A stretch of 64,000 bases of DNA from an uncultured delta proteobacterium (GCA_963816145.1 CAWFJP010000011.1:192001-256000); one strand, 5' to 3'. Shown: positions 34,907 to 60,551, counted from the first letter of the stretch. Translations and numbers: made by a program. The notes: generated by a model from the sequence alone, not told the origin.

Positions 34907-35188
34907 ATGAGCATGGAAGATATCGAGCCAAAGACAGCGGGGGTAGAAGCACCGGTCGATAGCGTTCAGGGTGCCGCTTGGTACAAAGGAGTAGCCGCCG
35001 GGGCAACGGTGGTAAGAATCGTCGAACTTAAGAATGGCGGCAGAGTTATATTGTTTTCTTCAGGCGATAAGGTCCTCAAATTACCAGGCCAATCGACCAA
35101 GACAGTGAAGCCGGATGGCCGTATCGTCGTCGAGCACAGCGACGGACAGGTCAGCGAGTCACGAATCAAGCAGCTTGATTCCGCTTGA
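34907..35188 (+). CDS. Small beta-hairpin-repeat hypothetical protein
   Basis: Repeated xxxxNG/SG/DG turns; TTGACA-17-GATACT upstream at 34752. Confidence 0.55.
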   Translation: MSMEDIEPKTAGVEAPVDSVQGAAWYKGVAAGATVVRIVELKNGGRVILFSSGDKVLKLPGQSTKTVKPDGRIVVEHSDGQVSESRIKQLDSA

Positions 35189-35652
35189 AGAGAAACCGCT
35201 CAACGTCGCCAGTGGCGCCGGGGAATCTGTTGGGAAGTTACTGTCCAATTTTGCCGTGCGACCGTTCGTAATGGATGGGAAACCTTACACCTCGGTGGAG
35301 GCTTTTTATCAGGGACTCAAATGGCCTGCTCCGGCAAAGCGATCCGAGATCGCCAGGCTTTCCGGCAAAGCCGCGAAAGTCAACGTCCCGGGGTGCGCCC
35401 AACTCCGACTGGTTCGAATATGAAGGTCGTAATTATTGATTTGGCAGCGGAGAACATCACCAGCTGATCAAACGAGCTATTCGTGCAAGCCTCGATCAGA
35501 ACAAGGAAATCCTTGATCAATTTGTTGCAACCCATCCGAGACCCATTGAGCACAAGACGGGCAGACCCGAGAACTCTCATTCCGCCTTTCCAGACACCGT
35601 GTTCACGCGTATTCTGACCGAGCTGAGAGCGGAATTCATGGCCGGCCTCTAA
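35175..35652 (+). pseudogene. NADAR protein of the T4 gp30.3-like type, frameshift plus internal stop
   Basis: LLSNFAVRPFVMDG..SVEAFYQGLK; then FEYEGRNY*FGSGEHHQLIKRAIRASLDQN..IEH..FTRILTELR*. Confidence 0.7.
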
Positions 35653-42158: not shown

Positions 42159-43349
42159 TTAATGCAGGCCGGCAGCATAACTCTCGGCCTGTCGCCGGCG
42201 TTTTGCCGTCGCATTACGGTTGCTCCATGCAGCCGGCTGATAGACACAAAACGGATCGCTGCGCCAAACATCCCCGGTAAGCGCAAACGCCCGGGCCCGG
42301 CTGCCGCCGCAAATGTTTTTGAATTCGCACAGGCCGCATTTACCCTTGAGTTGCCCGTAGTCGCGCACGCGGCGAAATACCGATGAGTCGCGGTAAATGT
42401 CCGCCAATGTCTGAAAGCGGACATTGCCGCCGACGAGGTTGAGGAAACCGCTGGGCTGGACATCGCCCTGGTGCGAAATGAACAGGATCCCCTTGCCGTC
42501 GTTCACGCCAAGCGGCGCGCGCACGATGCGGGTAGCGCGCGCCGACGGCGCGACCTCTGTCGGCGTCGAGTGCTGCCGTTCGACCTCAGCGAGCAGGTCG
42601 GCAACGGGAATGGCGAGTTCGGCGGCGCGCCGCTGCAACAACACGCGCCGGTAGTGGTAACCTTCCCGCGGCGTGACATCGAAGGGCGCCGTTTTGGCCA
42701 GATCATAGAGCCAGTTAAACAGCGACTCCAATTGGCGCGCGTTGAGATTGAGCCGGCGCACCTCCGGCCGCGCCGCCCGCCCCACGGCGATCAGGAGAAA
42801 CAGCGCCCACAGTTTGATGCCGCGCGCGCCGATCATTTCGGCGATCGCGCCGAGATCGTTCAGCACATGGCGCGTCACGGTGGTGTGAATCTGGCTCTCC
42901 AAGCCACAGTCGCGGCACCAGTCGAGGATCTGCAGCGTGCGCTCGAACGATCCGGCAACGCCGCGAAAGCCGTCATGGCTCGCAGCATCCTTGCCGTCCA
43001 GGCTCAACGCCAAGCGCACCAGTCCGGCGTCGGCCAAGCGGCGCACCACCGCGGGCGTCATCAATGGTGTCGCCGATGGCGTCATCGCCACCCGCAGCCC
43101 TTCGCCGCGCGCGTAGGCGATAATGTCAAAGATATCGGAACGCTTCGCCGGATCGCCGCCGGTTAAAATAAAAATCGGATACGGCGGACCGAAAGCTTTG
43201 ATGTCGAACACCAGCTTCTGAGCCTCGGCAAAGGTTAGTTCTCCCGCGCTTCTTCGCGGATTCGCTTCGGCGCGGCAGTGCACGCAGGCGAGATCGCAGG
43301 CGCGGGTCGTCTCCCACACCACGGTAAAGGGTCGTTGATTGAAATTCAT
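42159..43349 (-). CDS. Radical SAM/SPASM protein (TIGR04053-like, AhbC/AhbD/NirJ-related)
   Basis: WETTRACDLACVHCRA, TGGDP, GVNDGKG, GKCGLCEFKNICGGSRARA..DPFC. Confidence 0.88.
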   Translation of the reverse strand: MNFNQRPFTVVWETTRACDLACVHCRAEANPRRSAGELTFAEAQKLVFDIKAFGPPYPIFILTGGDPAKRSDIFDIIAYARGEGLRVAMTPSATPLMTPAVVRRLADAGLVRLALSLDGKDAASHDGFRGVAGSFERTLQILDWCRDCGLESQIHTTVTRHVLNDLGAIAEMIGARGIKLWALFLLIAVGRAARPEVRRLNLNARQLESLFNWLYDLAKTAPFDVTPREGYHYRRVLLQRRAAELAIPVADLLAEVERQHSTPTEVAPSARATRIVRAPLGVNDGKGILFISHQGDVQPSGFLNLVGGNVRFQTLADIYRDSSVFRRVRDYGQLKGKCGLCEFKNICGGSRARAFALTGDVWRSDPFCVYQPAAWSNRNATAKRRRQAESYAAGLH

Positions 43350-43424: not shown

Positions 43425-43620
43425 ACCCTCGGCTTTAACCCGAGGGGTTCTAAATTTGTCCACTGAAAGTCGATTCTTCGGGGTCGTCATTCCGGCGTAG
43501 AGCCTGCCCCGGACTCGATCCGGGGCCGGAATCCAGGTTTCGTTTAGCCTTGAAGCGCGCGCGAAGATGGATGCCGGCCTGCGCCGGCATGACAAACCCT
43601 CTCTTCGCCTCAAGGCGAGG
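43425..43620. repeat. Composite REP/MITE-like element, copy A
   Basis: CCCTCGG..CCGAGGGG hairpin plus GTCATTCCGGCG..GCCGGAATCC..GGATGCCGGC..GCCGGCATGAC. Confidence 0.8.
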
Positions 43621-43874: not shown

Positions 43875-44046
43875 ACCCCTCAGTTCCAAGCCGAGGGGTT
43901 CGAATACGTCGACTGGAAGTCGACTCTTTCATGTCGTCATTCCGGCGTAGGCCGGAATCCAGGTTTTCTTTGGCCTTGCAGCGCGTCGAAGATGGATGCC
44001 GGCCTTCGCCGGCATGACAGACCTTACTCTTCGCATCGAGGCGAGG
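43875..44046. repeat. Composite REP/MITE-like element, copy B
   Basis: Collinear direct copy of 43425-43620 lacking the inner CCCCGGACTCGATCCGGGG hairpin. Confidence 0.8.
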
Positions 44047-44245: not shown

Positions 44246-44653
44246 ATGAAACTCGGCAAGGAAAGCCGCTACGCGATCGAGGGACTTGTGGTCTTAGCCA
44301 AAAAGCCATTCGGCACAACCATGCAATTGCGAGATATTGCCGCGGCGGCAGGAGTTCCCTCCAACTTTCTAGCGAAGATATTCCAAAAGCTCGGCCGGGC
44401 GAGCATCCTTGTCTCCTCCCGCGGCGCCGTTCGCGGCTACGCCATCGCTCGTCGGCCAAACGCCATCACGATGAAGGATGTCGTTGTCGCCGTCGAGGGC
44501 AGCGATGTTTTCGATCGCTGCATTTTTTGGCGCGATCGCTGCGCCGATCTGTCTCCCTGCCCGATGCATTCCGAGTGGAAACAGATGCGCCAAGCCATCG
44601 CCAGGCGGATGCATGGGATAACCTTGGCGGACTTAGCGAGAAAAAAACGGTGA
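44246..44653 (+). CDS. Rrf2 family Fe-S transcriptional regulator
   Basis: YAIEGL, FLAKIFQKL, SSRGAVRGY, CIFWRDRCADLSPCPMH. Confidence 0.92.
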   Translation: MKLGKESRYAIEGLVVLAKKPFGTTMQLRDIAAAAGVPSNFLAKIFQKLGRASILVSSRGAVRGYAIARRPNAITMKDVVVAVEGSDVFDRCIFWRDRCADLSPCPMHSEWKQMRQAIARRMHGITLADLARKKR

Positions 44654-44698
44654 AGCGCATTTGATCGATCCGACAACGATCCGGGGAGGGACCCTGAG

Positions 44699-46279
44699 AT
44701 GAAATTGTTTTTTGCTTCGATGATCGCGCTGGTTGTCGTTTTATGCGGCCTCGCAGTCATCAAATCCGCGGAAGTCAAATCACCTCCTGCTTCCTCTCAA
44801 CTCATTGCGGTCGGCAAGCAGCTCTACGGCCAGCAATGCGCCGCTTGCCACGGCACCACCGGCCGTGGCGACGGCGAAGCGGCTTATCTCTTGTATCCCA
44901 AGCCGCGCGATTTCGTTGCCGCCAGGTATCGCTTGGTTTCCACTTGGGAGCGCGTCCCGACCGATCAGGATCTGTACGACACCATCACTCGCGGCATGCC
45001 GGGTTCGGCCATGCCATCTTGGGGACATCTGACGCCCGAGCAACGTTGGGGCTTGGTCCACTACATCAAATCGCTGGCTGAGAAGCCGCTGGAAATTAAA
45101 CCGTCGAAAGCTCCCAACGCCGACGGCAGCGGCGGTCAGGGAGTCATTCAACCGCCGCCGCAACTGCCATTCGATAGCGCGGCTAGAACCCGAGCTTTGG
45201 AACTGTACAAAGAAGCCTGCGCTTCTTGCCACGGCGCGACGGCAAGAGGCGACGGCACAGAGAAGCAGGTCGACGAAGAAGGCTATCCAACCCGTCCGCG
45301 CGATCTCACCGCCGGTATTTTCAAAGGCAACCATGATCCGCTTTCGCTCTACCGCCATATCGTTGCCGGCATTCCTGGTAGCCCGATGCCGATGAGCGAC
45401 TGGGCCTGGGGCAATGACGCCTGGCATCTGGTCAATTACGTGCGTTCTCTTTCCAGTGACACGCAGCGTGCGCGTGTCGAGATGAAAAAATTCATCATTC
45501 AGGCAGAGCGCGTCAAAACTCTTCCCGATCATCCCGAGTCCGGTATCTGGCGCAGCGCGCCGCCGGTCAATCTTCACCTGATGCCGCTTTGGTGGCGCAG
45601 CGAAAGACCGGAGGAAGTGACCGTGCGTGCCGTCCACGATGGCAAAGAGCTGGCGATCCTGATGGTCTGGCGCGATGATACCAACGACCAGACCGCTGTG
45701 CGTCCGCAGGATTTTCGCGATGCCGCCGCAATCCAATTTTCGTTGACCGCAAACCCACCGTTTTTCGCCATGGGCGCCACCGGCGCGCCGGTGAATATCT
45801 GGATGTGGAAATCCGAGCGGCAAGCCGATCTGGATCTCGCCTTTCAGGACATCGAGAGAGCTTATCCAAATATCGGTATCGATTCCTACCCCAATTCGAT
45901 GCGCTCAGCCGTCGAACAGCCGTCTCGACACGCTCTGACGTTGCAATCGGACCCGACATTCGTCACCGGCTGGGGCGCAGGGAATATCGTTTCTGATCCG
46001 CAGCGAAAAAGTGCTGTCGAAGATCTTGCGGCCCAAGGATTCGGCACATTACGAGCAAGACCGAGGATCGAACAAAAGATTGACGCCCATGGAGTCTACG
46101 GACTGGGTTCCTATGCGGTCATGTTCCGCCGAACGCTGACACCGACCGGTGAAGGAGCCGTGGCACTGAAACCGGGCTCGACCCTGCCCGTCGCCTTTGC
46201 CGTCTGGAACGGCAGCGCGGGAGATCGCGACGGCAAGAAATCGGTGACTATTTGGCAGGATCTGAAGATTGCTAAGTAG
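44699..46279 (+). CDS. Diheme cytochrome c fused to an EbdC-type heme b domain (NxrC/gamma-like)
   Basis: Sec signal, CAACH and CASCH, FRDAAAIQF, FFAMG, VNIWMWK, AFAVWNGSAGDRDGKKS. Confidence 0.85.
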   Translation: MKLFFASMIALVVVLCGLAVIKSAEVKSPPASSQLIAVGKQLYGQQCAACHGTTGRGDGEAAYLLYPKPRDFVAARYRLVSTWERVPTDQDLYDTITRGMPGSAMPSWGHLTPEQRWGLVHYIKSLAEKPLEIKPSKAPNADGSGGQGVIQPPPQLPFDSAARTRALELYKEACASCHGATARGDGTEKQVDEEGYPTRPRDLTAGIFKGNHDPLSLYRHIVAGIPGSPMPMSDWAWGNDAWHLVNYVRSLSSDTQRARVEMKKFIIQAERVKTLPDHPESGIWRSAPPVNLHLMPLWWRSERPEEVTVRAVHDGKELAILMVWRDDTNDQTAVRPQDFRDAAAIQFSLTANPPFFAMGATGAPVNIWMWKSERQADLDLAFQDIERAYPNIGIDSYPNSMRSAVEQPSRHALTLQSDPTFVTGWGAGNIVSDPQRKSAVEDLAAQGFGTLRARPRIEQKIDAHGVYGLGSYAVMFRRTLTPTGEGAVALKPGSTLPVAFAVWNGSAGDRDGKKSVTIWQDLKIAK

Positions 46280-46285
46280 CGACGG

Positions 46286-46394
46286 TTCAACCCCCACCTC
46301 TTTCCTCCCCCGCGGCGCGGGGGAGGATGAAGGAGGGGGATTGAACGACTGGAACCACTGGAACGATTGGAACGCGAGCGACGACAGGAGCGAG
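46286..46394. repeat. nxr-operon intergenic palindrome, copy 1
   Basis: CCTCCCCCGCGGCGCGGGGGAGG hairpin, TGGAACNNN 9-mers, CGAGCGACGACAGGAGCGAG. Confidence 0.9.
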
Positions 46395-46398
46395 AAAA

Positions 46399-49300
46399 AT
46401 GAACGACGATGAAGCCAGAGCGATGAGCGCGAATCACCCGCCGTGATTTTCTCAAGTGGATGGGCATCGGCACCGGCGCAGCGGCCATCGCTGCCGGTTC
46501 TTTGCACTATTTCAGACCGGCAGACGGCGGCGACAATCCCCTTGCCCGATCGATCAATCGAGAATGGGAAAAGATTTACCGGGATCAATACAAATTCGAT
46601 AGCGCTTTTGACTGGGTCTGCTCGCCAAACGACACCCATGCGTGCCGAGTGCGCGCTTACGTGCGCAATGGCATCGTCACCCGCATGGGAGCCACCTACG
46701 ATTACCAAAACTACGCCGATCTTTACGGCAACAAAGCAACCGTCAATTGGAATCCGCGCCAGTGCGCCAAGGGCTACACTTTTCATCGCGTCATCTATGG
46801 CCCCTACCGGCTGCGCCATCCGATCGTGCGCAAAGGTTGGAAGGCTTGGGCGGATGCCGGCTTTCCCGAACTCACGCCGGAGAACAAAACCAGATACATG
46901 TTCGACGCCCGCGGCCAAGACGAGTTCGTGCAGATTTCCTGGCCGGACGCCTTCGACAACATCGCCAAGGCGCTGGTCGCGATTTCTACCCGTTACAGCG
47001 GCGACGCCGGAAAGAAACTTCTCCTGGCACAAGGTTACCAACCGGAAATGGTCGAAGAGATGGGCGGCGCCGGCACGCGTACGGTAAAAATGCGCGGCGG
47101 TATGGGCTTGCTTGGCGTGATCGGCAAGTACGGCATGTACCGCCTCAACAATTCACTGGCGCTGCTCGATGCCAAGATCCGCGGCGTCGGTCCCGAGAAG
47201 GCCCGCGCCGGGCGCAATTTTTCGAACTATACCTGGCATGGCGATCAAGCGCCGGGCCATCCCTGGGTGCACGGCCTGCAGGCGTCGGAGTGCGACTTCA
47301 ACGATTTGCGTTTTTCCAAACTCATCATCATGGACGGCAAGAACCTGGTCGAAAACAAGCTCACCGACTCGCACTGGTTTATCGAGTGCATGGAGCGCGG
47401 CGCGAAGATCGTGGTGATCGCGCCGGAATACGGCCCGCCGTCGACCAAAGCCGACTACTGGATTCCGATTCGCCCGCAGACCGACGCCGCGCTTTGGCTC
47501 GGCGTTACTAAGCTGATGATCGACAAGCAATGGTACGACGAAACTTTCGTCAAGCGCTTCACCGATTTCCCGCTGCTCGTGCGCACGGATAATTTGAAGC
47601 GGCTGCGCGCCCAGGAAATTTTTGCCAATTACAAAACCAGTCTGTCGGCTGACGGCCCGTCGATGAAGGTGCAAGGTCTGACCGCCGAGCAGCACGCCCA
47701 GCTTGGCGACTTCGTGATTTGGGATGGGAAGACGAACGGCCCGGTGGCAATCACGCGCGATGATGTGGGCGAGACTATGGCAAAAAAAGGCTTGGACCCA
47801 GCGCTCGCCGGCACTTTCAAGGTCAAACTCACCGACGGCAAAGAAGTCGAAGTCGCAACGCTTTGGACGCTTTATCAAACCCATCTGAAGGACTACGACC
47901 TCGATACGGTAGCCGAGATCACCCAGGCGCCGAAAGCGATGATCGAGCAGCTGGCGCAAGATATCGCGACGATGAAACCGGTGGCGATTCATCAAGGCGA
48001 GGGCATCAACCACTGGTTCCACGCCACGGAAATGAACCGCGCAGCATACTTACCGCTGATGCTGACGGGCAACATCGGCAAGCCGGGCGCCGGCTGCCAC
48101 ACCTGGGCGGGCAACTACAAAGCGGCCCTCTTTCAGGGCTCGCCCTGGACCGGTCCTGGCTTTAAAGGCTGGGTAGCGGAAGACCCGTTTGAGATCAACC
48201 TCAATCCGAAGGCTGACGGCAAAGAGATCCATGCTCATGCTTACACCAAAGACGAAGAGCCGGCTTATTGGAATCACGGCGATCTCGCTTTGATCGTCAA
48301 CACGCCGAAGTTTGGCCGCAAAAACTTTACCGGCAAGACCCACATGCCGACGCCCACCAAAGCCCTGCTCTTCAACAACGTCAACCTGATCAATAACGCC
48401 AAGTGGGCCTACGGCATGATCAAGAACGTCAATCCCAATGTGGAAATGATCGTTTCGATGGACATTCAGATGACCGCTTCCATCGAGTATGCCGACCTCG
48501 CGCTGCCGGCCAACTCGTGGCTCGAATTCGAAGGATTGGAAATTACCGCGAGCTGCTCGAATCCTTTCCTGCAAATTTGGAAAGGCGGTATTGCGCCGGT
48601 CTTCGACAGCAAAGATGACCTCGACATCATCGCCGGCATCGCCAATGCGCTCGCCAACGTCACCGGCGAGAAACGATTCCGCGATTACTTTGCCTTTGCC
48701 GCCGCCGACAAACGGGGCGTTTACATCCAGCGCCTGCTCGACACCTGTACGACGACGGCCGGTTACAAGCTCACCGATATCATGGCCGGCAAGTACGGCC
48801 CGTCGGGCGGCTGCTTGCTGAACTTCCGCACCTATCCGCGCATTCCCTTCTATGAACAGGTGCACGACAGCGAACCGTTCCATACGGACACAGGACGGAT
48901 GCACGCCTACGCGGACGTGCCGGAAGCGATCGAGTACGGCGAGAACTTCATCGTGCATCGCGAAGGGCCGGAAGCGACACCCTATTTGCCCAACGTCATC
49001 GTCAGCTCCAATCCGCTCGTGCGACCCGAGGACTATGGCATCCCTGCCAAGGCCGAGCACTGGGATGAGCGCACCATCCGCAACATCAAGATGCCCTGGA
49101 GCAAGGTCAAGCAGAGCAAAAACTTTCTCTGGGAAAAGGGCTTCCAGTTTTACTGCTTGACACCGAAGACGCGCCACCGGGTGCATAGCGGCTGGTCGAA
49201 CGTCGATTGGCACATGCTGATGGACTCCAACTTCGGCGATCCCTACCGCCTGGACAAGCGCGCCCCCTGCGTCGGCGAACATCAACTGCACATGAATCCC

Positions 49301-49868
49301 CAGGCAGCTCGCGATCTTAACATCAACGACGGCGACTACGTTTACGTCGACGCCAACCCGGCCGATCGGCCCTACCTCGGCGCGAAACCAGATGATCCGT
49401 TCTATCGCGTGTCGCGCCTGCATGCTGCGCGTGACCTATAACCGCGCTTATCCGTACAACATCGTGATGATGAAGCATGCACCGTTCATCGCCACGGAGA
49501 AAAGCGTCAAGGCGCACGAAACCCGGCCCGACGGCCGCGCGTTGTCGGCGAACACCGGCTACCAGGCCAATCTGCGCTACGGCTCGCAGCAATCGATCAC
49601 GCGCAATTGGCATATGCCGATGCATCAGACCGACACGCTGTTTCACAAGTCGAAAGCTTTCATGAGCTTTATTTTCGGCGGCGAAGCCGACAATCACGCC
49701 GTCAACACCGTGCCCAAAGAAACCCTCGTCCGCGTCACCAAAGCGGAAGACGGCGGCATGGGCGCCAAAGGCATCTGGAAACCAGCGACGTCGGGACACT
49801 CGCCGGATAACGAGAACGATCTGATGAAACGATATCTGGCGGGAGATTTGACCAAGGTGAAAACATGA
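46399..49868 (+). CDS. nxrA: Periplasmic nitrite oxidoreductase/nitrate reductase alpha subunit (type II DMSO reductase family, anammox/Nitrospira clade); indels near 46430 and 49420
   Basis: Tat motif ITRRDFLK, FS0 CSPNDTHAC..C, GGMGLLGVIGKYGMYR, Mo-ligand NYTWHGDQAPGHP, HREGPEATPYLPN, RYGSQQS, NTVPKETLV. Confidence 0.92.
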
Positions 49869-49876
49869 AGCGAGAC

Positions 49877-50021
49877 CGTTCCACAAGTTCCAACCGTTCC
49901 AATCGTTTCAGCCCCCACCTCTTTCCTCCCCCGCGTCGCGGGGGAGGACGAAGGAGGGGGATTGAACTTCTGGAACAATTGGAACCTGGAACGACTGGAA
50001 CCCGAGCGACGAAGGAGCGAG
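49877..50021. repeat. nxr-operon intergenic palindrome, copy 2
   Basis: GTTCCA 9-mers, core hairpin, TGGAAC 9-mers, CGAGCGACGAAGGAGCGAG. Confidence 0.9.
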
Positions 50022-50023
50022 AG

Positions 50024-50455
50024 ATGCCCTTTAAAGACCCCGATCCCACCGATCCGAACATGCTCGTCGGCGTGATGTTGCCGGCGGACGCGGAAGCGAC
50101 CCGCGATATGGCCTATGTCTTCGCTGAAGAATTCGCGCGCATGGGTTACAACCGCGAGCAGTTGCTCTGGCTGTTCAAGAATCCCTTCTACGGCGGCGCC
50201 CATGGCGCGTACCGGGCGCTCGGCGAACAAGAAACTCTGGCGATCATCGATGAATGTCTGAACGTTTGGGGAAACATTCGGGTTCGGTTCTGGATTTTCG
50301 ACGTTCAAGCGATCAAACTGCCAGCCTCCGACCTCCCCCGCGACGCGGGGGAGGATGAAGGAGGAGGCTTGAACGGAGCGCAGCGTGTTGAACGGAATCG
50401 AATGATCGAACGATTGAACGGAATCCAAATTCGAGCGACGAGAGGAGCGAGATGA
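50024..50455 (+). CDS. Small protein between nxrA and nxrB (tail runs through repeat copy 3)
   Basis: AAGGAG RBS; MPFKDPDPTDP..FAEEFARMG..LFKNPFYGGAH. Confidence 0.75.
   Translation: MPFKDPDPTDPNMLVGVMLPADAEATRDMAYVFAEEFARMGYNREQLLWLFKNPFYGGAHGAYRALGEQETLAIIDECLNVWGNIRVRFWIFDVQAIKLPASDLPRDAGEDEGGGLNGAQRVERNRMIERLNGIQIRATRGAR
50332..50451. repeat. nxr-operon palindrome, copy 3 (partial)
   Basis: CCTCCCCCGCGACGCGGGGGAGGATGAAGGAGG..TTGAACG..CGAGCGACGAGAGGAGCGAG. Confidence 0.85.
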
Positions 50456-51721
50456 TGAGCTAAGGTTCACAACTGGCAGATCGGCCGGGAAATGAATTAT
50501 CCCTACCCGCAAGCATTCCCGCGCCAACAATTCGCCTTCGTCTTCAACATCAACCGCTGCATCGCCTGTCAGAGCTGCACGATGGCCTGCAAGTCCACCT
50601 GGACCTTCAATAAGGGCCAGGAGCATATGTGGTGGGCCAACGTCGAGACCAAGCCCTACGGCGGCTACCCGCAATTCTGGGACGCCAAGATTCTCGACCT
50701 CCTGGAACAAGCCAACCCCGGCAACCAGCAATGGTCGGGAAAACCGTCCAACGATAAAAACAAACCTTACGGCCAGTTCGACGGCAAGACGATTTTCGAA
50801 GCGCAAAACATGCTGACGCCGGACAGCGCCCGCGTGCTCGGCTATCTGCCGACCGACGAAGAATGGAACTTGCCGAATATTTTCGAAGACAATCCGGTCG
50901 GCAAACGAGGGGTGCGCAACGAGATCGACAAGGAAGGCACGGCGCTGCCAGAGCATAAGACCTGGTTCTTCTATCTAGCGCGCATCTGCAACCACTGCAG
51001 CTATCCGGCCTGCCTGGCCGCCTGCCCGCGCAAAGCGATCTACAAAAGGCCCGAAGACGGCATCGTACTAATCGATCAGAAGGAATGCCGCGGCTACCGC
51101 AAATGCGTTGAAGCCTGCCCGTACAAAAAGTCCATGTACCGCGGCAACACCCGGGTGTCGGAAAAATGCGTCGGCTGTTATCCACGCGTCGAAGGGAAAG
51201 ATCCGGAAAGCGACGGCCAACCGATGGAAACCCGTTGCATGGCCGCCTGCATCGGCCAGATCCGCATGCAGGGTCTGGTCAAGATGAACAACGACGGCAG
51301 TTGGGCCGAAGACCGCTACAACCCGCTCTACTATATGGTCAAGGTCGCCAAAGTTGCCCTGCCGCTTTATCCGCAGTTCGGCACCGAGCCCAATGGTTAT
51401 TATATTCCGCCGCGTTGGGTGCCGCGGGAATATCTGAAGCAGATGTTCGGTCCGGGCGTCGACGAGGCGATCGAGCGCTACAGCTATCCCGATCGCGAAT
51501 TGTTGGCGGTCTTGCAGCTATTCCGCCGCTCGAATCGGATTATTTTCCGCTACGAAATCAAAGAAGGGCCGAAAGTCTACGAAGCGACGCTCAGGGGGCG
51601 CAAGGTCACCCTGTATAACGACACCGTGATCGCCTACGGCCAAGACAATAAAGAGATCTTCCGCACCCAGATCGAAGAGCCGGTGCACGTGCGGCCGAAC
51701 AAGCATGCGAACTCCATATGA
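50455..51721 (+). CDS. nxrB: Nitrite oxidoreductase/nitrate reductase beta (Fe-S) subunit; one extra base after the ATG
   Basis: (M)AKVHNWQIGREMNYPY, CIACQSCTMAC, CNHCSYPACLAAC, CRGYRKCVEAC, CVGC..CMAAC, PQFGTEPNGYYIPPR. Confidence 0.93.
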
Positions 51722-51730
51722 ATCAAACGC

Positions 51731-51856
51731 GTTCCAGCCGTTCCACCGCTGCGCTCCGTTCCAGTCGTTCAACCCCCTCCTTCATCCTCCCCCGCGACGC
51801 GGGGGAGGAAAGAGGTGGGGGTTGGATCGATTGGAACGATTGGAACCACTGGAACC
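51731..51856. repeat. nxr-operon palindrome, copy 4 (core inverted)
   Basis: GTTCCA repeats, CCCCCTCCTTCATCCTCCCCCGCGACGCGGGGGAGGAAAGAGGTGGGGG, TGGAAC repeats. Confidence 0.9.
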
Positions 51857-51878
51857 AACCGAGAAATGAGGCAACTCC

Positions 51879-52685
51879 ATGAACATTAACGAAGAAGATT
51901 TCGCTCAAGCGACTAGCGACACTGATCTGAGTTATTGCCGCGCGGCAATTTACAGCGTGCTGTCTCTGGGTTTTCAGCCGCCAACCGAGCAAATTTTATC
52001 TCGGCTCTTGACACCGGAAAGCCGAGCTTCGCTGGCGCATGCCGCGACGTTGCTTTATCCCGAGCAGAAAACCGATCTCGTCACCAGCATCGAGGCATTG
52101 GCCCAGGCCGGCGAAAACGATACCGCCGCGCTGGCTTCCCGTTATCGCTTCCTGTTTGGCCACACCGCCCGCGGCGAGATTACGCCGTATGAAACCGAAT
52201 ACGGCAACGAAGCACTGTTTCAGCAACCTCAAGAACTCGGCGACCTGATGGGCTTCTATCGCGCCTTCGGTCTGGACATGCGAGCCGGCACACATGAACG
52301 GCCCGACCACATTAGCTGCGAGTTCGAGTTCTTGATGTTCTTGGCGCTCAAAGAAGCCTATGCCCTGGAACACAACGACCGCGACATGCGCCAGGAAACC
52401 AGCAAGGCTGAAGTGCTATTCATGCGCGATCACCTCGGCCGTTTTCTGCCCGCATTCGTCGGCCTACTGCAGCGAGAAGATCGATCCGGTTTCTATGGGA
52501 ACCTCGGTGAACTCTGCCGCCGCTTTGTCAGCGCTGAGGCTGACCGGCTGCAAGTTCCGCTGGGTGCAGCAAACTTGGGGTTGCGGCCGGCGGACGACGG
52601 GAGCGTCCCTATGGCCTGCGGCAGCGGTGCGGAATGCGCCGCCATACCCGGCGCCGATACGCCGGAAGGAGCAGAATCGGCATGA
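51879..52685 (+). CDS. TorD/DmsD family chaperone (NxrD-like)
   Basis: PYETEY, GFYRAFG, ERPDHISCEFEF, FMRDHLGRF. Confidence 0.9.
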   Translation: MNINEEDFAQATSDTDLSYCRAAIYSVLSLGFQPPTEQILSRLLTPESRASLAHAATLLYPEQKTDLVTSIEALAQAGENDTAALASRYRFLFGHTARGEITPYETEYGNEALFQQPQELGDLMGFYRAFGLDMRAGTHERPDHISCEFEFLMFLALKEAYALEHNDRDMRQETSKAEVLFMRDHLGRFLPAFVGLLQREDRSGFYGNLGELCRRFVSAEADRLQVPLGAANLGLRPADDGSVPMACGSGAECAAIPGADTPEGAESA

Positions 52686-53650
52686 GCGAAGGGTTGAGCG
52701 TTAAATTCGATCCGAAGCTAGTTGAAGACACGGTGTTCTACTCTCAGGGCGCCAGCGATATTGCGCCGGAGCTCGCCAAGCAGCGCGACCGCATTTATGA
52801 CGTAGCCAAGCCCGAAGCGCGCGACGAACTATTTCGTGAACTCTATCGGACTTGGTTCAACCGTCTCGGTTTGGGAGAGCCGATCCACCGAGCTTTGCGC
52901 GAACAGGCGCTGGTCACGACTCGGGTAAATAACTGTTACGTCCTCTGCGCTACCCATGCGAAACAAGAAGGCGCCGAGCTCTTCGTCGCTACAGACCCGG
53001 CTTCGCGAGAGATCCAGCAGCGCAATTTGCGCATCTTGATCCGCCCCGCAACCTTGCTTCGAACCGAGGCGGTGATGGAGTTTCTCCGTCATGAACTATT
53101 TCATATCGCCGACATGCTCGACCCAGCGTTTGCCTACGAACCGACTTTGCCGAAGGCCGAGGGCGGGCCGACCTACGATACGCTGATCATCAACCGCTAT
53201 CGCGTGCTCTGGGATGTGACGATCGCCGGCCGCATGCTGCGGCGCGGCTGGTGTGCCGCCACCGTTCGCGATCAAGAGCTCAATAACTTCGTCCAAGCCT
53301 TTGCGATGCTGAACGGCCAGTACGAAGAACGTTTTCAGCGCTTTTTTGATGCAGCGGAGCCGCGCCATGCGGAACTCGCCGCGTTCGCCTTCGCTCCCCG
53401 AGCAGCCACGGACAATCTCTCGAACCAAGGGGTCGCTGGTACGCACTGTTCGTTGTGCCGATTTCCCACCCACGCTTTTGCATCCGAGCCCGCGCGCCTC
53501 GGCGCTGAAGTCTTAGCCGCGATCAATGAAGACTTCCCCGACTGGACCCCGGCAAAGGGACTCTGCGTCCAGTGCGCCGATCTCTACCGCGGCCGGCAAA
53601 TGTCGTTGGAGGCTTTGCGACTACTACCGGGATACATATCGTCGAGATAA
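52682..53650 (+). CDS. Hypothetical protein with HEXXH and two CxxC motifs
   Basis: LRHELFHIADMLDP; CSLCRFP..CVQCAD; ATGA overlap with the chaperone gene. Confidence 0.8.
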   Translation: MSEGLSVKFDPKLVEDTVFYSQGASDIAPELAKQRDRIYDVAKPEARDELFRELYRTWFNRLGLGEPIHRALREQALVTTRVNNCYVLCATHAKQEGAELFVATDPASREIQQRNLRILIRPATLLRTEAVMEFLRHELFHIADMLDPAFAYEPTLPKAEGGPTYDTLIINRYRVLWDVTIAGRMLRRGWCAATVRDQELNNFVQAFAMLNGQYEERFQRFFDAAEPRHAELAAFAFAPRAATDNLSNQGVAGTHCSLCRFPTHAFASEPARLGAEVLAAINEDFPDWTPAKGLCVQCADLYRGRQMSLEALRLLPGYISSR

Positions 53651-53708
53651 ATTAATTTCACGCCAGGAGTCGCCATATCCGATCAAAAACCGAAGGGAAC
53701 AATCTACA

Positions 53709-54803
53709 ATGCGAAGTTTCGACGAACTGCTTAAAGAGACGTCGACCATCCACGGCCACCAGTGCGCCGGGCAAATCTTGGGCGTCCGCATGGCGATGCT
53801 GGGATGCCGCGAAGTTGGCATCGACGAGCCGCGCGGCTGCAAGAAGCTGATCGTTTACGCTGAGATCGACCGCTGCGCCACCGATGCCGTGCAGGCGGTC
53901 ACCGGCTGCTCGCTCGGCAAACGGACGTTAAAGTTTCTCGACTACGGCAAGATGGCGATAACCTTCCTCAACACCGAGACCGGGCAAGCGGTGCGAGTGT
54001 TGGCGAAAGACGACGCGCGCAAGCTGGTGCCGCTGTATGTCCAGGACAGCGCCAATCCGCGAGAAGCACAAAAACAAGCCTATCGAATCATGCCTGAAGA
54101 AGCGCTCTTCGCCGTTAAACCGGTAACTATGGAAGTATCCCCGCAAGAGATGCCCGGCTATCGCGGCAAACGGGTAGAGTGCACCCGGTGTGGCGAGGGA
54201 ATAAACTTCAATCGCGAAGTCGAGCTCGCCGGCCTTGTGCTCTGTATTCCCTGCTCACAGGAAGAATTGCGCTCGAACGGTCATGGCAGTGGAGCAAAAA
54301 CAGCCGACGCTAAAGTCCTATTGATCGTCGGCTATAAGAAAGTCGGCAAGACAACCTTGATTGAGAGACTGATCCCGGAGCTCTCTCGGCGTGGCTATCG
54401 AGTCGGCACGGTGAAGCATCATCACTCGGACTTTCCGGTGTCAGTCGATACCGTGGGTACGGACACCTGGAGACATCGCCAAGCCGGGGCCGCCGGTGTC
54501 GCCCTGGTGACACCAACCGATGTCACGCTGTTCCGTAACGGTGAGAGTTCGGTTCCCCTCGATGACATCGTCGCCGGGTTGGGCGCAACCGATATTGTCT
54601 TAGTCGAAGGATTTCACCAGGAACCACGCGCTAAAATCGAAGTGCGATCGGCTCACATCGATGCAGCGTTGTGCGGCAACGACAAAAACCTGCTCGCGGT
54701 CGTCGGGCCGAATGCGCAGCAAGGCTCGATACCGACCTTTGCGCCCGGAAGCATCCAGCCCATCGCCGATTTCATCGAGCGCGAGATTTTGGTGCGAGCC
54801 TAA
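53709..54803 (+). CDS. mobB: FmdE-family domain fused to MobB (Mo-bis-PGD synthesis adaptor)
   Basis: HGHQCAG..G.RM, CATDAVQ..TGC, CTRCGE..CIPC; then VGYKKVGKTTL, VKHHH, DTWRH..AGA, VEGF. Confidence 0.85.
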   Translation: MRSFDELLKETSTIHGHQCAGQILGVRMAMLGCREVGIDEPRGCKKLIVYAEIDRCATDAVQAVTGCSLGKRTLKFLDYGKMAITFLNTETGQAVRVLAKDDARKLVPLYVQDSANPREAQKQAYRIMPEEALFAVKPVTMEVSPQEMPGYRGKRVECTRCGEGINFNREVELAGLVLCIPCSQEELRSNGHGSGAKTADAKVLLIVGYKKVGKTTLIERLIPELSRRGYRVGTVKHHHSDFPVSVDTVGTDTWRHRQAGAAGVALVTPTDVTLFRNGESSVPLDDIVAGLGATDIVLVEGFHQEPRAKIEVRSAHIDAALCGNDKNLLAVVGPNAQQGSIPTFAPGSIQPIADFIEREILVRA

Positions 54804-54833: not shown

Positions 54834-55403
54834 CTAAACCGCCTTGCGCTTGCCGGCGGTTCGCCCCTTGTCGCGTAGTTTTCGCCGCAGGAACTCGAGG
54901 ATACCGATGTGTTTGTGCGAGTCGTGAACCATCGTCGTGTAGAGCAATGCAAACACGTCACGATAGTGTCCTTGGCTCTCTTTTTTCAGCCGTTCGTATT
55001 CTTTGATCCCCTTGCGCTCAGCCTCAAGAAAGCGCTCAACGGATGCCAGCAGCTGGGCGCGCTTCTCCCCCTTTTCATAAACGCGCCGGGCCAGCCCTTC
55101 GGCGCGCGTCCACGCCAGCTCATCTTTGAGTTTCGTAATCATTCGGCGCGTCAGCTCGTGATGGCGCTGTTCGTCGGCGACGATCAGATCGAGGAGAAAG
55201 CGGATCAGTGGATCGCTCGACTCCTTGGCGATCACTTGATAATCCGTCAGCCACTGCTCCTCATGAGTCGCATGGGTTTGGAATTCGTTCATCAAACGCT
55301 GCACCGAGGAGAATTCCGGCGACTCAGGGACTCCCCACATCGCATCTTCCGCCCAGTAGTTGGCAATCGCTTTAATCGCTGACGACCGCGGGCTTCGTGC
55401 CAT
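54834..55403 (-). CDS. Ferritin-like domain protein
   Basis: E..Y, DEQRH, E..GIKEY and DSHKH four-helix diiron-type pattern. Confidence 0.75.
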   Translation of the reverse strand: MARSPRSSAIKAIANYWAEDAMWGVPESPEFSSVQRLMNEFQTHATHEEQWLTDYQVIAKESSDPLIRFLLDLIVADEQRHHELTRRMITKLKDELAWTRAEGLARRVYEKGEKRAQLLASVERFLEAERKGIKEYERLKKESQGHYRDVFALLYTTMVHDSHKHIGILEFLRRKLRDKGRTAGKRKAV

Positions 55404-55596: not shown

Positions 55597-55633
55597 TTGA
55601 TCCTATTGCCAGAACTATGAAATGGGGTGGTCA

Positions 55634-56792
55634 ATGACAACTGTCGAGAATATCGTTTCTCGGTATCGCGAGCCTTTGGAAAACTCTCCCCTCGATCTCG
55701 TCCAAGATTGGAAACGGACCCACCCTGAAACAAAGATCGTCGGCTGCTATCCGGTCTACACCCCGGTCGAACTCATCCATGCCGCCGGCATGCTGCCCGT
55801 GGGCGTCATCGGCGCGGGCAACCGGTTGGAGATCGCCCACGCGGATTCCCGTTTCCAATCTTTCGTCTGCTCCATTGTGAAAAGCACCTTGGAGCTGGGT
55901 CTCACCGACAGACTGAAATTTCTCGACGGCATGGTGTTCCATTCGATTTGCGATCCGGCGCGCAATCTCGGCAGCGTGTTCACCCGCAACTTCCCCGATC
56001 TCATGGTGGAGTATATTCACTTTCCGCAAAACATGACTTCGCCTCACACCGTTGAGTATTTGCTCGCTGAATACAAAAGGATCGCCGTCAGCTACGAGCA
56101 ACTGGCGCGCCGGAAAATCACCGACGAAGCGCTGCGAACGAGCATTGCGCTTTACAATAAGCAGCGGCGCTTGATGCGAGAACTCTACGCCATCCGCAAA
56201 GCGACGCCGCAGAATCTTTCCACCGTCGAGTGCTACGTCCTGACCCGCATCGGCACGCTACTGCCCGGCCGAGGAACATATCGCGATCCTCGAGACGGCG
56301 ATCCCGCAACTGCGCCAGCGCAACGAAAAACCCAAGGACCGGATTAGAGTGGTCCTGGAAGGCTCGTTCTGTGAACAGCCGCCCCTCGAACTGCTGGAAG
56401 GATTGGAGGCAGCGGGTTGCTACATTCTCGATGACGATTTCGTGATCGGCTGGCGCTGGTTTTCCGAGGATATCCCCACCGACGGCGACCCCATGCGCAA
56501 TCTCGCCAACGCTTACCTCAACCGCAGCGTTTATTCCGGCGTCAAACACGATACCCGCGAGCCCAAATCCAAACACCTGATCGACAAATTCAGGGATGCC
56601 CGCGCCGACGCGGTATTGATCCTCGCCGCCAAGTTCTGCGAGCCGGCGCTGTTCGACTACGCGCTCTATAAACGGGCGCTCGAGAAAGAAGGAATCCCGC
56701 ATCTCTGCCTCGAGTTCGAGGAAAAGATGTGGATCTTCGATAAAGCGCGCACCGAGGTCGAAACTTTTGTCGAATCGATGCTCTTCGATTAG
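55634..56792 (+). CDS. bcrC: Class I benzoyl-CoA reductase subunit C (HgdB-fold); extra base near 56268
   Basis: ELIHAAGMLP, QSFVCSIVKSTLELGL, SICD..RNL, GSFCEQPPLEL, KFCEPAL. Confidence 0.85.
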
Positions 56793-56801
56793 GAGACAGT
56801 T

Positions 56802-58103
56802 ATGGCCGAAACAGCAGCAGCAGAAAAAACTCAGTATCAGGGTCAGATGCATCTTCTGCAGAAGGAAATGATGGGCCGCTACTTTGACCGCGTCACCCGT
56901 GCCGCGGAACAGGGCGAAGGCAAAGCCGTCTACATGCTGATCAGCGGCAATCCGGTGGAGCTCATCCAGGCCTTCGATCTGATTCCGGTCTATCCTGAAA
57001 TTGACGCCCTGCAGCTGGCGGCGAAGAAGAGCGCCCTGCCCTTCATCCTCAAGGCCGAAGAGTTGGGCTACTCGATGGACAACTGCGCCTATGTGAAAGC
57101 CGATGTCGGTCTGTTTCTCGGCGACCGCAAGACCCCGTTCGCAACCATCCCGCTGCCGTCGCTGATTCTCTGCAACTATGTCGGCTGCAATGTCTACTTG
57201 CAGTGGTTCGAGCACCTGGCCGAATACTGCGATGGGCAACTCTACAACCTCGACATCCCGTTCTTGCGCGACCCCTCCGGCGTGCCGAGCGCGGCGGACG
57301 TCACCTACGTCGTGCGCCAGCTCGAAGAAGTGATCGAAGTCTGCGAGCGATTGACCGGCAAGAAACTCGACTACGCACGGCTCAAACAAATCGTCGGCCG
57401 GTCGAGCGAAACCGGCCAAATGTGGGCGCGGATCAAAGCGCTGACCAAGAATCTGCCGTCACCCTTCGACGCCTATTTCGACTCGGTGACCATGATGGCG
57501 CCGCTCTATTGTCTGCGCGGAACCGAAGAAGGCGTGCGCTTCTTCGAGACCGCCCTCAAGGAGATGGAAGAGAAAGTGCGCCTGGGCCAGGGGCCGTTAC
57601 CCCAGGAGCGCTTCCGCTTCGTCATCGAAGGGCCGCCGCCTTGGGGCCATCTGCGAACCTTTAGAGATATGTTTTCCAAATGGGGCGCGGTGGCGGTGGC
57701 GTCGACTTACTCCACCGTCGGCGGCCTGTGGGAATTCGGTTTTCACCACGACTCCAATCACCCCTTGGAATCCATCGCTCAGCATATGCTCCAATGGAAC
57801 GTGACCAACCGCAACTTCCTGCAACGCTACCAACAGATTCGCCGCTACGTCGAAGAGTGGCATGCCGACGCGCTGGTGATTCACTCGGTGAAGAGCTGCC
57901 GGCTTTTCTCCGCCGGCCAGGGCGACATGCGGGAATATTTCACCAAAGAGCTGAACGTTCCCACCCTTTTGATCGAATCGGATCTTGAAGATCCGCGATA
58001 TTTTTCCGAAGCCCAGCTCAAAAACCGGGTCGACGCATTTTTCGAATCGTTGGAACACAAGAAAATGGTCCGTGCCGGCGCGGAAGCGGGAGGCGCAACA
58101 TGA
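56802..58103 (+). CDS. bcrB: Class I benzoyl-CoA reductase subunit B
   Basis: [53 protein letters not shown]. Confidence 0.88.
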
Positions 58104-58933
58104 TTTACGCCGCTGGCATCGACGTTGGTTCGACTCAGACCAAAGGGATTATCCTCAACGACAAGTTCGAGATTGTCGCCCGGGCTTTGACCGACACCGG
58201 CGCTTACGTGACCCGGGCCGCTGAACGGTGCTTCGTCGAAGCGCTGCAGGCATCCGGCGTCAAGCGCGAAGATGTCGCCTATGTCGTCGGCACCGGTTAT
58301 GGCCGCTACAAGGTGACCTTCGGCGACGCGCAGATTACCGAAATCAGCTGCCATGCGCGCGGCGCCAGCTACCTCTTTCCCAAAACCCGCACCGTGATCG
58401 ACATGGGCGGCCAGGACGCCAAGGGCATCAAGATCGGCGTCGACGGCGATGTCAAAGACTTCGTCATGAACGATAAATGCGCCGCCGGCACGGGAAGATT
58501 TCTCGGCAGCGCCGCCGACGCTCTGGCGATTCGCCTGGACGATATCGGCGACATATCCCTCAAGGCCAAAAACCCGGTGCGCCTCACCACCGTGTGCACG
58601 GTGTTCGTCGAGTCGGACATCATGTCTTACCTCGCCCAGGGCAAGAAGACCGAAGACATCCTCGGCGGCGTGCACAGCGCCATCGCCGCTCGGACCATCT
58701 CCTTGATTCGCCGCGTCGGCATCGAGCCGGAGGTGACTTTTACCGGCGGGGTGTCAAAAAACATCGGCATGGTGCGCGCCCTCGAAGAAAAACTCGGCAT
58801 GAAACTCAACGTCAGTCCGGATTCCCATTTCGTCGGCGCCCTGGGCGCGGCCATCTTCGCCCTGGAGCGGGCAACGAAGTCGATGGGCGAAATGCAAAGA
58901 GCAACAGGAGGCGAGGCGGGCCCTAGTGCCTAA
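58100..58933 (+). CDS. bcrA: BCR ATP-dependent activase subunit (short BcrA/BzdQ-like)
   Basis: [48 protein letters not shown]. Confidence 0.8.
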
Positions 58934-58961: not shown

Positions 58962-59789
58962 ATGACATTTGTCGCGGGCATCGACATGGGCGCCAAATCG
59001 ACCAAGGCGGTGGTCTTGGATGGGGAGAAACAAATTTGTGGCAAGGCCGCGATCAAAACCCGTCCGGATTTCGCCGCGGTTGCCAAGGAGGTGCTCGACT
59101 TGGCGCTGCAGCAGGCTGGGCTCAAAGAGAATGACCTGAACTACATCGCCACCACCGGCTTCGGCCGCTACAATGTGCCGTTCCGCGACGTTCAGATCAC
59201 CGACATCACCTGCGTCGGCCGCGGCGCGGTTTTTCTCTTTCCCAAGACCCGCTGCGTGCTCGACATCGGCGCCCAGAGCACGCGGGCGCTGCGGGTCAGC
59301 GACACCGGCAAGGTGCGCGAGTTCCGCACCAACGATAAGTGCGCCGCCGGCGCCGGCGGCTTCATCGAGCGCGCTTGCAAATATCTCGAGGTCAAGATCG
59401 ATCAGGTCGGCGATCTCTCCATCCAGGCCACCAAGCCGCAAACCATCAGCAGCGTGTGCGCCGTGTTGGCCGAATCGGAGATCATCAATCATGTCTCCAA
59501 CGGCGAGACCATCGAAAACATTCTGCGCGGCGTGCACAACTCGCTCGCTTCGCGGGCGCTCGCCTTGCTCAAGCGCTCGGGCATGGAAGACGAAGTCACC
59601 TTCGTCGGCGGCGTGGCCCGGCAAAAAGGCATGGTCAAAGCCCTTGAGGAAACGCTCAAGCGCAAGGTCAACGTCAGCGACGAGCCCGAGTTGGTCGGCG
59701 CGCTGGGCGCGGCCCTGCTGGCGCTGCGCCGGCTGGAAAAACTCCGCACCGAGAAAGCAAATCCTGTCGAAGAAGCGAGGGTGGCATAA
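58962..59789 (+). CDS. bcrD: BCR ATP-dependent activase subunit (BcrD/BzdP-like)
   Basis: GIDMG, TTGFGR, LDIGAQ, NDKCAAGAG, SSVCAVLAESE. Confidence 0.8.
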   Translation: MTFVAGIDMGAKSTKAVVLDGEKQICGKAAIKTRPDFAAVAKEVLDLALQQAGLKENDLNYIATTGFGRYNVPFRDVQITDITCVGRGAVFLFPKTRCVLDIGAQSTRALRVSDTGKVREFRTNDKCAAGAGGFIERACKYLEVKIDQVGDLSIQATKPQTISSVCAVLAESEIINHVSNGETIENILRGVHNSLASRALALLKRSGMEDEVTFVGGVARQKGMVKALEETLKRKVNVSDEPELVGALGAALLALRRLEKLRTEKANPVEEARVA

Positions 59790-60551
59790 TGGATCTTCAA
59801 AACAAGTCCGCATTGGTGGCCGGCGGCGGCGGCGGTATCGGCCGGGCGGTGGCGTTGGCGTTGGGGCGCGCCGGGGCGAAGGTAGCCGTCGCCGACATCG
59901 CCAAGGACAACGCCGAGAAAGTCAAATGCGGAAGTCCAAGGCCTCGGCGTGGGCGCCATGGCCTGCCCGGTGGATCTGACTCGCAAGGCCGACGTCGACC
60001 GCATGGTCGGCGAAATCATCGAGCGCTTCGGTCAGATCGATATCCTGGTCAACTGCCAGGGCTGGGATCGGCTCGAGCCCTTTGTCGAAAGCGACGAAGC
60101 GACTTGGGAAAAACTCTTGGCGATCAATTTCAAATCGGTGCTGTACACGGCCCGCGCGGTCTTGCCGAACATGATCTCCCATAACTTCGGCAAGGTCGTC
60201 AACATCAGCTCCGACGCCGGCCGGGTGGGATCGAGTTGGGAAGCGGTCTACGCCGGCGCCAAGGGCGCGGTCATCGCATTTTCGAAAACCATCGCCCGCG
60301 AGGTCGCGCGCTACCACATCAACGTCAATGTCGTCTGCCCAGGGTTGACGGAAACGCCGCTACTGCAAGCCGTGCGCAGTCAATCGGAACAGACCGCGAG
60401 AATCATCGATGCGGTGACCAAGGCGACCCCCTTCCGCCGTCCGGCGCAACCGGAAGAGATCGCCAACGCCGTTCTGTTTCTTACCTCGCCAGAGGCTGGT
60501 TTTATCACCGGCCAAACGCTGAGCGTGAGCGGCGGACTGACGATGGTGTGA
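59789..60551 (+). CDS. SDR, BadH-like (2-hydroxycyclohexanecarboxyl-CoA dehydrogenase-like); extra base near 59926
   Basis: GGGGGIG, LVNCQGWD..PF, SSDAGRVGSS.EAVYAGAKG, SVSGGLTM. Confidence 0.8.

Follow-up and report, generated by a model that had tools for sequence, protein, structure and literature searches.

What does a nitrite oxidoreductase (NXR) of the type found in anaerobic ammonium-oxidising (anammox) bacteria do in an organism that appears to live as a heterotroph? We addressed this question for a locus of an uncultured delta proteobacterium (GCA_963816145.1, CAWFJP010000011.1:192001-256000). The window is this whole stretch of 64 kb, and all coordinates are positions within it. An earlier note, made from the sequence of the window, had proposed that the region 44246-54803 (+ strand) holds a complete anammox-type periplasmic NXR operon. 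The region is best explained as an intact-in-life copy of a widespread six-gene periplasmic NXR-type cassette. Its gene order is gamma (dihaem c plus haem b), alpha, a small protein (X), beta, a TorD-like chaperone and a 322-aa protein (Y). The host is an uncultured soil or wetland Binatia heterotroph. An Rrf2-type (Fe-S) regulator and an FmdE-MobB cofactor gene are additions in the Binatia lineage, and the FmdE-MobB gene is lineage-specific. The region comprises nine features, eight genes and an 82-nt palindromic repeat:

44246-44653, + strand: Rrf2-family regulator with three C-terminal Cys (Fe-S type), first gene of the cluster (PF02082, 99 bits; TIGR00738, 99 bits, cut-off 73)
44699-46279, + strand: gamma subunit (NxrC type), 526 aa (PF09459, 93 bits; PF00034, 77 bits)
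46399-49868, + strand: nxrA, catalytic subunit with molybdenum-bis(molybdopterin guanine dinucleotide) (Mo-bisMGD), 1155 codons after reading through two single-base insertions (7B04_B, 1786 bits)
50024-50455, + strand: small conserved cytoplasmic protein between nxrA and nxrB (no family; positional conservation)
50492-51721, + strand: nxrB, iron-sulfur subunit (7B04_A, 588 bits over residues 1-409; PF13247, 85 bits)
51879-52685, + strand: TorD/NarJ-family assembly chaperone, NxrD (PF02613, 69 bits, cut-off 22)
52682-53650, + strand: 322-aa conserved cytoplasmic accessory protein, its start overlapping the chaperone stop
53709-54803, + strand: FmdE domain - CxxC...CxxC - MobB fusion, molybdopterin guanine dinucleotide synthesis adaptor (PF02663, 117 bits; PF03205, 131 bits; TIGR00176, 118 bits, cut-off 76)
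46283-46364, 49904-49985, 50311-50392 and 51765-51846, no strand: 82-nt palindromic intergenic repeat, four copies (repeat search, 63-100% identity)

Judged by sequence, the alpha subunit groups with the Kuenenia-type periplasmic NXR and not with NarG, EbdA or PcrA. Structure searches were run with the intact homologue P0001, which is 96% identical to the NxrA of the window. The match to Kuenenia NXR-A (7B04_B) was full length (query residues 11-1153) and scored 1786 bits, compared to 192 for PcrA, 176 for EbdA and 116 for NarG. The earlier preference for a Kuenenia-type enzyme over NarG was therefore borne out, and the three segments quoted in its favour (47096-47143, 47234-47263 and 47747-47773) were letter-identical to Kuenenia NXR-A in the alignment; the second of them contains W-H-G-D-Q. 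The protein failed the equivalog test for NarG (TIGR01580, 150 bits, cut-off 1084) and carries a Tat motif. This motif (T-R-R-D-F-L-K-W, 46436-46459) is in frame with the main open reading frame (ORF), aligns with the same motif in seven homologues, and is cut off from its ATG only by an extra base near 46425. The FS0 cluster site (C-x3-D-x3-C, 46619-46645) and a further Cys within 46751-46774 occupy the same columns as in the K. stuttgartiensis subunit (KsNXR-A), for which 3Cys/Asp71 coordination is described (PMC8387239).

The other subunits gave the same picture. NxrB scored 588 bits against 7B04_A, compared to 198 for PcrB, 187 for EbdB and 167 for NarH. The gamma subunit has a hydrophobic signal or anchor at its N-terminus and an EB_dh haem-b domain at its C-terminus, with CxxCH haem-c motifs at residues 47 and 174. 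Its residues 36-252 matched the dihaem cytochrome 6H5L_B, a chain of a Kuenenia HAO-type complex (130 bits), and residues 307-523 matched NXR-C (7B04_C, 102-104 bits). A Met and a Lys of gamma align with the haem-b ligands of KsNXR-C, given as Met155 and Lys305 in the structural report (PMC8387239). Every element listed in the earlier note (Tat motif, FS0 site, W-H-G-D-Q, beta, gamma and chaperone) was present where it had been placed.

The window enzyme thus shares with NXR-ABC of Kuenenia stuttgartiensis (PDB 7B04; Chicano et al. 2021, PMC8387239) similarity along all three subunits (1786, 588 and 102 bits), a Tat-type alpha subunit, a 3Cys/1Asp FS0 site, an identical segment around the Mo-ligand Asp, the haem-b Met/Lys pair and the absence of a NarI-type membrane subunit. 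It differs in that its gamma subunit has an N-terminal dihaem cytochrome c domain, and in that its host has neither hydrazine synthase nor an anammoxosome, so that the enzyme would sit in the periplasm. NarGHI of E. coli (PDB 1Q16) belongs to the same superfamily, catalyses the same chemistry in reverse and can be aligned around the Mo ligand, with only the 116 bits noted above. Unlike the window enzyme, NarG faces the cytoplasm, has a His-ligated FS0 cluster and works with a quinol-oxidising NarI (PMC8387239 and general knowledge).

The window architecture has no quinol-oxidising membrane subunit, and electron exchange with c-type cytochromes is therefore expected. By analogy with the family, the alpha subunit with bound beta would receive Mo-bisMGD and its Fe-S clusters in the cytoplasm with the help of the chaperone, and X, Y and MobB probably also assist in cofactor loading. 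The alpha-beta pair would be exported via Tat and would join Sec-exported gamma in the periplasm. The likely electron path runs from Mo through FS0 (3Cys/1Asp) and four Fe-S clusters to haem b and two haems c, and to or from soluble or membrane c-type cytochromes.

We then found that the cassette is far from rare, contrary to what the earlier note had implied. A protein database search returned 3029 relatives of NxrA among 7999 scored candidates. The best 120 of the 3029 were 81-96% identical and all close clade members. One representative at 50% clustering (P0121) was 62% identical to NxrA, and its relatives were proteins of metagenome-assembled genomes (MAGs) of Pirellulales, Gemmataceae, Omnitrophica, Phycisphaeraceae and Anaerolineae, either unnamed or from non-nitrifiers. 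In a set of species-representative genomes, 596 of 597 matched stretches encode a relative, corresponding to 596 species genomes; the best 80 of the 596 were 74-97% identical to the query P0001. The carriers come from more than a dozen phyla. Their labels include Binatia, Deltaproteobacteria, Syntrophobacter, Acidobacteriota, Methylomirabilota/Rokubacteria, Planctomycetota/Phycisphaerae, Gemmatimonadota, Latescibacterota, Hydrogenedentota, Omnitrophota, Verrucomicrobia, Eisenbacteria, Marinimicrobia and KSB1.

Gene order was assessed by probing the best 80 loci with the proteins of the window; most absences lie at contig ends. All eight probes were present and colinear in 51 loci, and the probes that were present were colinear on one strand in all 80. 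The dihaem and EB_dh halves of gamma were contiguous in every locus where both were found (68/68). The small protein held its position between nxrA and nxrB in 78 of the 80 loci, the chaperone was found in 64 and the 322-aa protein in 58. The additions were less common, with an Rrf2 gene upstream on the same strand in 10/80 loci and both halves of FmdE-MobB downstream in 8/80. Because the genes are colinear across the loci of the clade, the layout of the window is the standard layout of a portable cassette. The window belongs to this unnamed six-gene NXR-type cassette of uncultured phyla, which has the same order and the same two unnamed accessory genes. Binatia-type copies differ from the general cassette in having the FmdE-MobB gene, and they have chromosomal neighbours in common, namely a radical-SAM gene on the upstream side and a cluster of benzoyl-CoA-reductase-like genes on the downstream side.

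The question of whether such an enzyme oxidises nitrite or reduces nitrate is not new either. A periplasmic Nxr of the group formed by nitrite-oxidising and anammox bacteria has been described in seven heterotroph MAGs, in a report that states its direction to be unknown and raises non-autotrophic nitrite oxidation (PMC9306079). NAR/NXR genes are also described in MAGs of non-methanotrophic Methylomirabilis (PMC11264602). The window is an ordinary further member of this known cassette group; its specific contributions are a Binatia host, an appended FmdE-MobB gene, a neighbourhood that is conserved and a census at genus level. The window itself adds little to the question of direction beyond one more host lineage, a conserved linkage to genes resembling an anaerobic aryl-CoA reductase, and a genus with no other recognisable nitrate/nitrite enzyme. 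The interest of the cassette lies in its breadth: by the count of 596 species-representative genomes, it is among the most widely spread nitrogen-cycle gene sets without tested physiology. Metagenome annotation pipelines call it either 'nitrate reductase' or 'nitrite oxidoreductase', and nitrate made or consumed by it alters how nitrification and denitrification potential is read from soil and wetland metagenomes.

We assessed the host through its genome (7.82 Mb in 31 contigs, with completeness rated at 99.5% and contamination at 6.7%). Its RpoB, encoded in a single open frame of 1367 codons, was 93-98% identical to MAG proteins. Among the matches listed, 8 of the 12 rows that name an organism read Candidatus Binatia bacterium; the others were one each of Verrucomicrobiae, Deltaproteobacteria, Betaproteobacteria and Eisenbacteria. 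We found no match in the genome to hydrazine synthase alpha (PF18582), RuBisCO, CdhC/ACS (acetyl-CoA synthase) or NirK. Together with the Binatia labels of RpoB, this supports the earlier view that the host is not an anammox organism and not a nitrifier of a recognisable autotrophic kind. NarG, NapA and NrfA stayed under threshold, and Cytochrom_D1 gave only a 30-bit partial match. The Citrate_bind domain of ATP-citrate lyase also gave no match in the host, in a search that was equally silent in all control genomes. The periplasmic NXR of Nitrospira and Nitrospina is of the same lineage as the anammox enzyme, and those hosts are autotrophic nitrite oxidisers; unlike them, the window host shows none of the carbon-fixation markers searched for. 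The host has two haem-copper oxidase subunit I (COX1) genes. It also has eight other molybdoenzyme-like ORFs, of which one is over the formate dehydrogenase (FDH) cut-off, one is NuoG, one is FDH/NasC-like just under cut-off and five are without assignment. These five (loci L086-L090 of the host genome, G000) are molybdopterin oxidoreductases of 753-942 aa that score 200-357 bits to PhsA, DmsA, type II DMSO-reductase or FDH models, under cut-off, and are possible respiratory enzymes.

The cassette nxrA is the only gene of its type in the host genome, and the cassette is accessory within the genus. Cassette-type nxrA (at least 89% identity) was present in 10 of 31 same-genus genomes, this one included, and several near-complete genomes of few contigs were without it; 16 genomes representing other families in the same order gave none. 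NarG was found in 0/31 genomes of the genus and NapA in 1/31, which leaves the cassette as the sole dissimilatory enzyme for nitrate/nitrite that can be recognised in this genus. We rejected the idea that cassette-free members have NarG or NapA instead, since NarG is absent from all 31 and the sole NapA-bearing genome also has the cassette. Two same-genus genomes encode NxrA-like paralogues (G014:C3:208712-212167, G014:C5:1030615-1034046 and G006:C429:3-2138) with 58%, 41% and 43% identity to the cassette type, so more than one NXR-like clade circulates in the genus. A genus with the cassette as its only recognisable nitrate/nitrite enzyme might offer a natural setting in which transcripts or isotopes could be followed without interference.

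In which direction would the enzyme run? KsNXR catalyses both directions in vitro (PMC8387239). The enzyme type is reversible and sequence does not decide the direction, as the earlier note had held. We lean, at about even confidence, towards an enzyme that would mainly reduce nitrate in this heterotroph. Nitrate would be converted to nitrite under anoxia, with electrons from the quinol pool passing through a complex III-type enzyme and cytochrome c. Three genomic observations favour this reading: the cassette is the sole recognisable nitrate/nitrite enzyme in the genus, the host has no match to RuBisCO or acetyl-CoA synthase, and a benzoyl-CoA-reductase-like cluster adjoins the cassette downstream. 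ATP-dependent benzoyl-CoA reductases are oxygen-sensitive and typical of nitrate-respiring facultative anaerobes. The cluster, of the ATP-dependent type, lies directly downstream of the cassette together with a BadH-like dehydrogenase and enoyl-CoA hydratases, and its adjacency to the cassette is kept in two relatives. In addition, a preprint reports unique peptides of a Binatia 'NarG' from river sediment, found with aromatic-degradation genes, and reads them as nitrate reduction (10.1101/2022.03.11.484050).

Several points weigh against nitrate reduction. To our knowledge, every biochemically characterised member of the clade oxidises nitrite in its own physiology. The two haem-copper oxidases of the host would make nitrite-to-oxygen electron flow possible, and the search of the host for enzymes that use up the resulting nitrite gave no NirK, only the partial Cytochrom_D1 match noted above, and NrfA under cut-off. 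Because five other molybdoenzymes are unassigned, nitrate need not be the sole anaerobic acceptor. The aromatic link is itself qualified. The genes at 55622-58933 best match benz_CoA_red_C, _B and _A, all under cut-offs (C, 197+120 vs 421 bits; B, 305 vs 487; A, 210 vs 578), and the cluster shows one ATPase gene only. The Binatia 'NarG' of the preprint, too, may or may not be the window enzyme.

The strongest alternative, plausible and in our view the less probable of the two, is the same enzyme reversed. It would oxidise nitrite to nitrate in the periplasm, and the electrons would travel by way of the fused dihaem-c domain and cytochrome c to the haem-copper oxidases. The gain would be either supplementary energy for an organism living heterotrophically (lithoheterotrophy) or the detoxification of nitrite. 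Membership of the Kuenenia NXR clade and a c-type cytochrome exit in place of a quinol site are consistent with this alternative. So are gene contents across a census of 50 cassette-bearing genomes of other lineages, which covers carriers only and MAGs that may be incomplete. At least one COX1 was present in 49 of the 50, as in the host with its two; this count, restricted to carriers, may merely reflect soil bacteria generally. NirK was over cut-off in 4 carriers (7 at 1e-30), NirS in 1 and NrfA in 7, with one of the three over threshold in only 10 of the 50; 40 carriers, like the host, had no nitrite-consuming reductase that we could find. NarG was present in 7 of the 50, and in those genomes the cassette is therefore not just standing in for NarG. 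Arguing against nitrite oxidation, no CO2-fixation marker was found in the host and RuBisCO was found in only 2 of the 50 carriers, and the cassette adjoins the anaerobic-type aryl-CoA reductase cluster. Nitrite is also usually scarcer than nitrate in soils. The broader form of this alternative is that heterotrophic Binatia, and by extension hundreds of non-nitrifier carriers, use the fused cytochrome-c exit and their haem-copper oxidases for aerobic nitrite oxidation. We regard it as doubtful. If true, a large hidden guild of lithoheterotrophic nitrite oxidisers would add to nitrate formation in soils, wetlands and aquifers.

Either direction supposes a working nxrA, which in the window is split over three frames. 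The earlier note had called for its indels to be repaired, and we located two single-base (+1) insertions, near 46425 and 49420. The frame of the ATG at 46399 ends after 15 codons, the Tat motif and the following 993 codons are in the second frame, and the final 148 codons are in the third; tblastn with P0001 placed the frame change at residue 1007. Seven homologues read straight through both junctions, so each break is one extra base. With the insertions removed, nxrA has 1155 codons, the length of the 96%-identical homologue P0001.

We compared 46300-49900 with Logan contigs from four runs, three of DNA (wetland and soil) and one of soil RNA; runs X16-X24, with small word shares, did not enter the comparison. 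Near-identical contigs in 4/4 public runs had one letter fewer at 46425 (46427 in the RNA run) and at 49420. Depth without the extra base over total depth was 16.3/16.3, 7.66/7.66, 12/12 and 13.8/13.8 at the first site and 17.8/17.8, 12.1/14.5, 13.5/13.5 and 19.1/23.8 at the second. In the RNA run (X15), 84 of 846 compared contig pieces were at least 99% alike; these are Logan contigs, hence no proof of transcription in this organism. At least two further genes in the window, one BcrC-like and one encoding a BadH-like dehydrogenase, are also frameshifted. Because other window genes are frameshifted and all four runs are without the insertions, the breaks in nxrA are very probably assembly errors. 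One finding points the other way: no run reproduced the window exactly (best word share 0.69), so that this strain might be alone in having the insertions.

If so, both frameshifts would be real and nxrA would be a decaying pseudogene in this strain, which we consider improbable. In its favour, besides the word share, neither insertion lies within a long homopolymer, and the cassette is accessory in the genus. Against it, the protein is 95% identical to intact homologues bar the two extra bases and has no in-frame stops, the remaining cassette genes are open, unrelated neighbour genes are frameshifted too, and a like break splits nxrA in one same-genus genome assembled into only ~50 contigs.

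As a side observation, the BcrC-like gene (55622-56792) shifts frame before 56250. The BadH-like short-chain dehydrogenase gene (~59780-60551) has its Rossmann N-terminus in one frame and the remainder in another, with the change near 59925. Counting the two in nxrA, the 64 kb hold at least four frame breaks.

About as improbable as a pseudogene is an enzyme with a different oxyanion or other compound as its substrate (chlorate, perchlorate, selenate or similar), as is the case for some type II DMSO-reductase relatives. The function of the subclade is read from sequence, and the NCBIfam matches are compatible with another substrate: alpha, beta, gamma and chaperone fall only in general type II DMSO reductase subfamily models, all under cut-offs. 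NxrA scored 345 bits against TIGR03479 (cut-off 985), and the chaperone 96 bits against TIGR03482 (cut-off 152). In contrast, NxrA shares 64 of 100 columns with KsNXR-A (counted in one 100-column block only), its alignment to that enzyme is full length and includes the Mo-ligand and FS0 segments, and perchlorate reductase scored only 192 bits.

A chimeric contig, which the earlier note had named as a result that would overturn its reading, was looked for. The operon is native to this lineage and the contig is not chimeric, because flanking genes on both sides are common to independently assembled same-genus genomes; synteny extends from upstream genes at 41.5-43.4 kb to 57.7 kb downstream. That the operon is foreign to the organism through mis-binning or a chimeric contig is very improbable: the contamination estimate of 6.7% allows for it, and it is opposed by a 530-kb contig of even G+C (operon 0.58, window 0.56) and by the same flanking genes adjoining the operon in several of those same-genus genomes.

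The two accessory genes had no relatives of assigned function. The small protein matched nothing in Pfam, NCBIfam or PDB sequence searches. It has a conserved core of ~95 aa (alignment A1, 37 sequences) and no signal peptide, and its tail runs into the hairpin repeat. An AlphaFold2 (AF2) model showed the core as a helical bundle (predicted local distance difference test, pLDDT, 93-98), and a fold search gave no match at E <= 0.001. In Nitrobacter, the NxrX gene is sited between nxrA and nxrB. The small protein here has that same position between the alpha and beta genes, and its searches gave no sequence or fold relation bearing on Nitrobacter NxrX.

The 322-aa protein has no Pfam or NCBIfam family. 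It has an E-x2-H...D motif and four invariant Cys (CxxC...CxxC); in an alignment of 38 sequences (A2), E138, D144, C256, C259, C295 and C298 were invariant and the His nearly so. Its AF2 model (pLDDT 91.9) gave only weak zincin-like fold matches, with a Foldseek E of 0.07 for 4L7A and VIA Z scores of 5.0-5.2 for M1 aminopeptidase, YbeY and 4L7A, under the meaningful level. We did not adopt a metalloprotease assignment, given these weak matches and a first His of H-E-x-x-H that is not conserved in A2. The fixed positions of the two genes beside the chaperone suggest that both proteins are assembly helpers.

For the first gene of the cluster, the Rrf2-family product did not reach the IscR and NsrR equivalog cut-offs. 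The 82-nt repeat is a G/C-rich hairpin with short tandem units at its flanks, and each of the first four cassette genes has one copy behind its stop codon. In the three DNA runs, depth was 260-348 over 46300-46420, compared to ~2-17 in the adjoining nxrA bin (46421-46541), and this excess indicates that the repeat exists in very many copies in nature.

On the strand opposite to the operon and upstream of it (42159-43349, -) lies a gene for a radical SAM/SPASM protein (TIGR04053, 438 bits, cut-off 395) that also scored 311 bits, under cut-off, against the haem b synthase AhbD. It is kept upstream in same-genus loci L003, L006 and L011. Directly after FmdE-MobB, a 189-aa ORF (54834-55403, -) without a Pfam or NCBIfam family is kept in 4/80 loci (L002, L009, L011 and L023). 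Further from the cassette, a 102-aa ORF (35115-35423, +) with a weak Phage_30_3 match (39.6 bits) lies among short unannotated ORFs. The Rrf2 gene is preceded by a non-coding stretch of ~850 nt, in which three blocks lying side by side (48, 36 and 37 nt) recur ~425-450 nt apart (43453-43598 and 43903-44023) with 81-95% identity.

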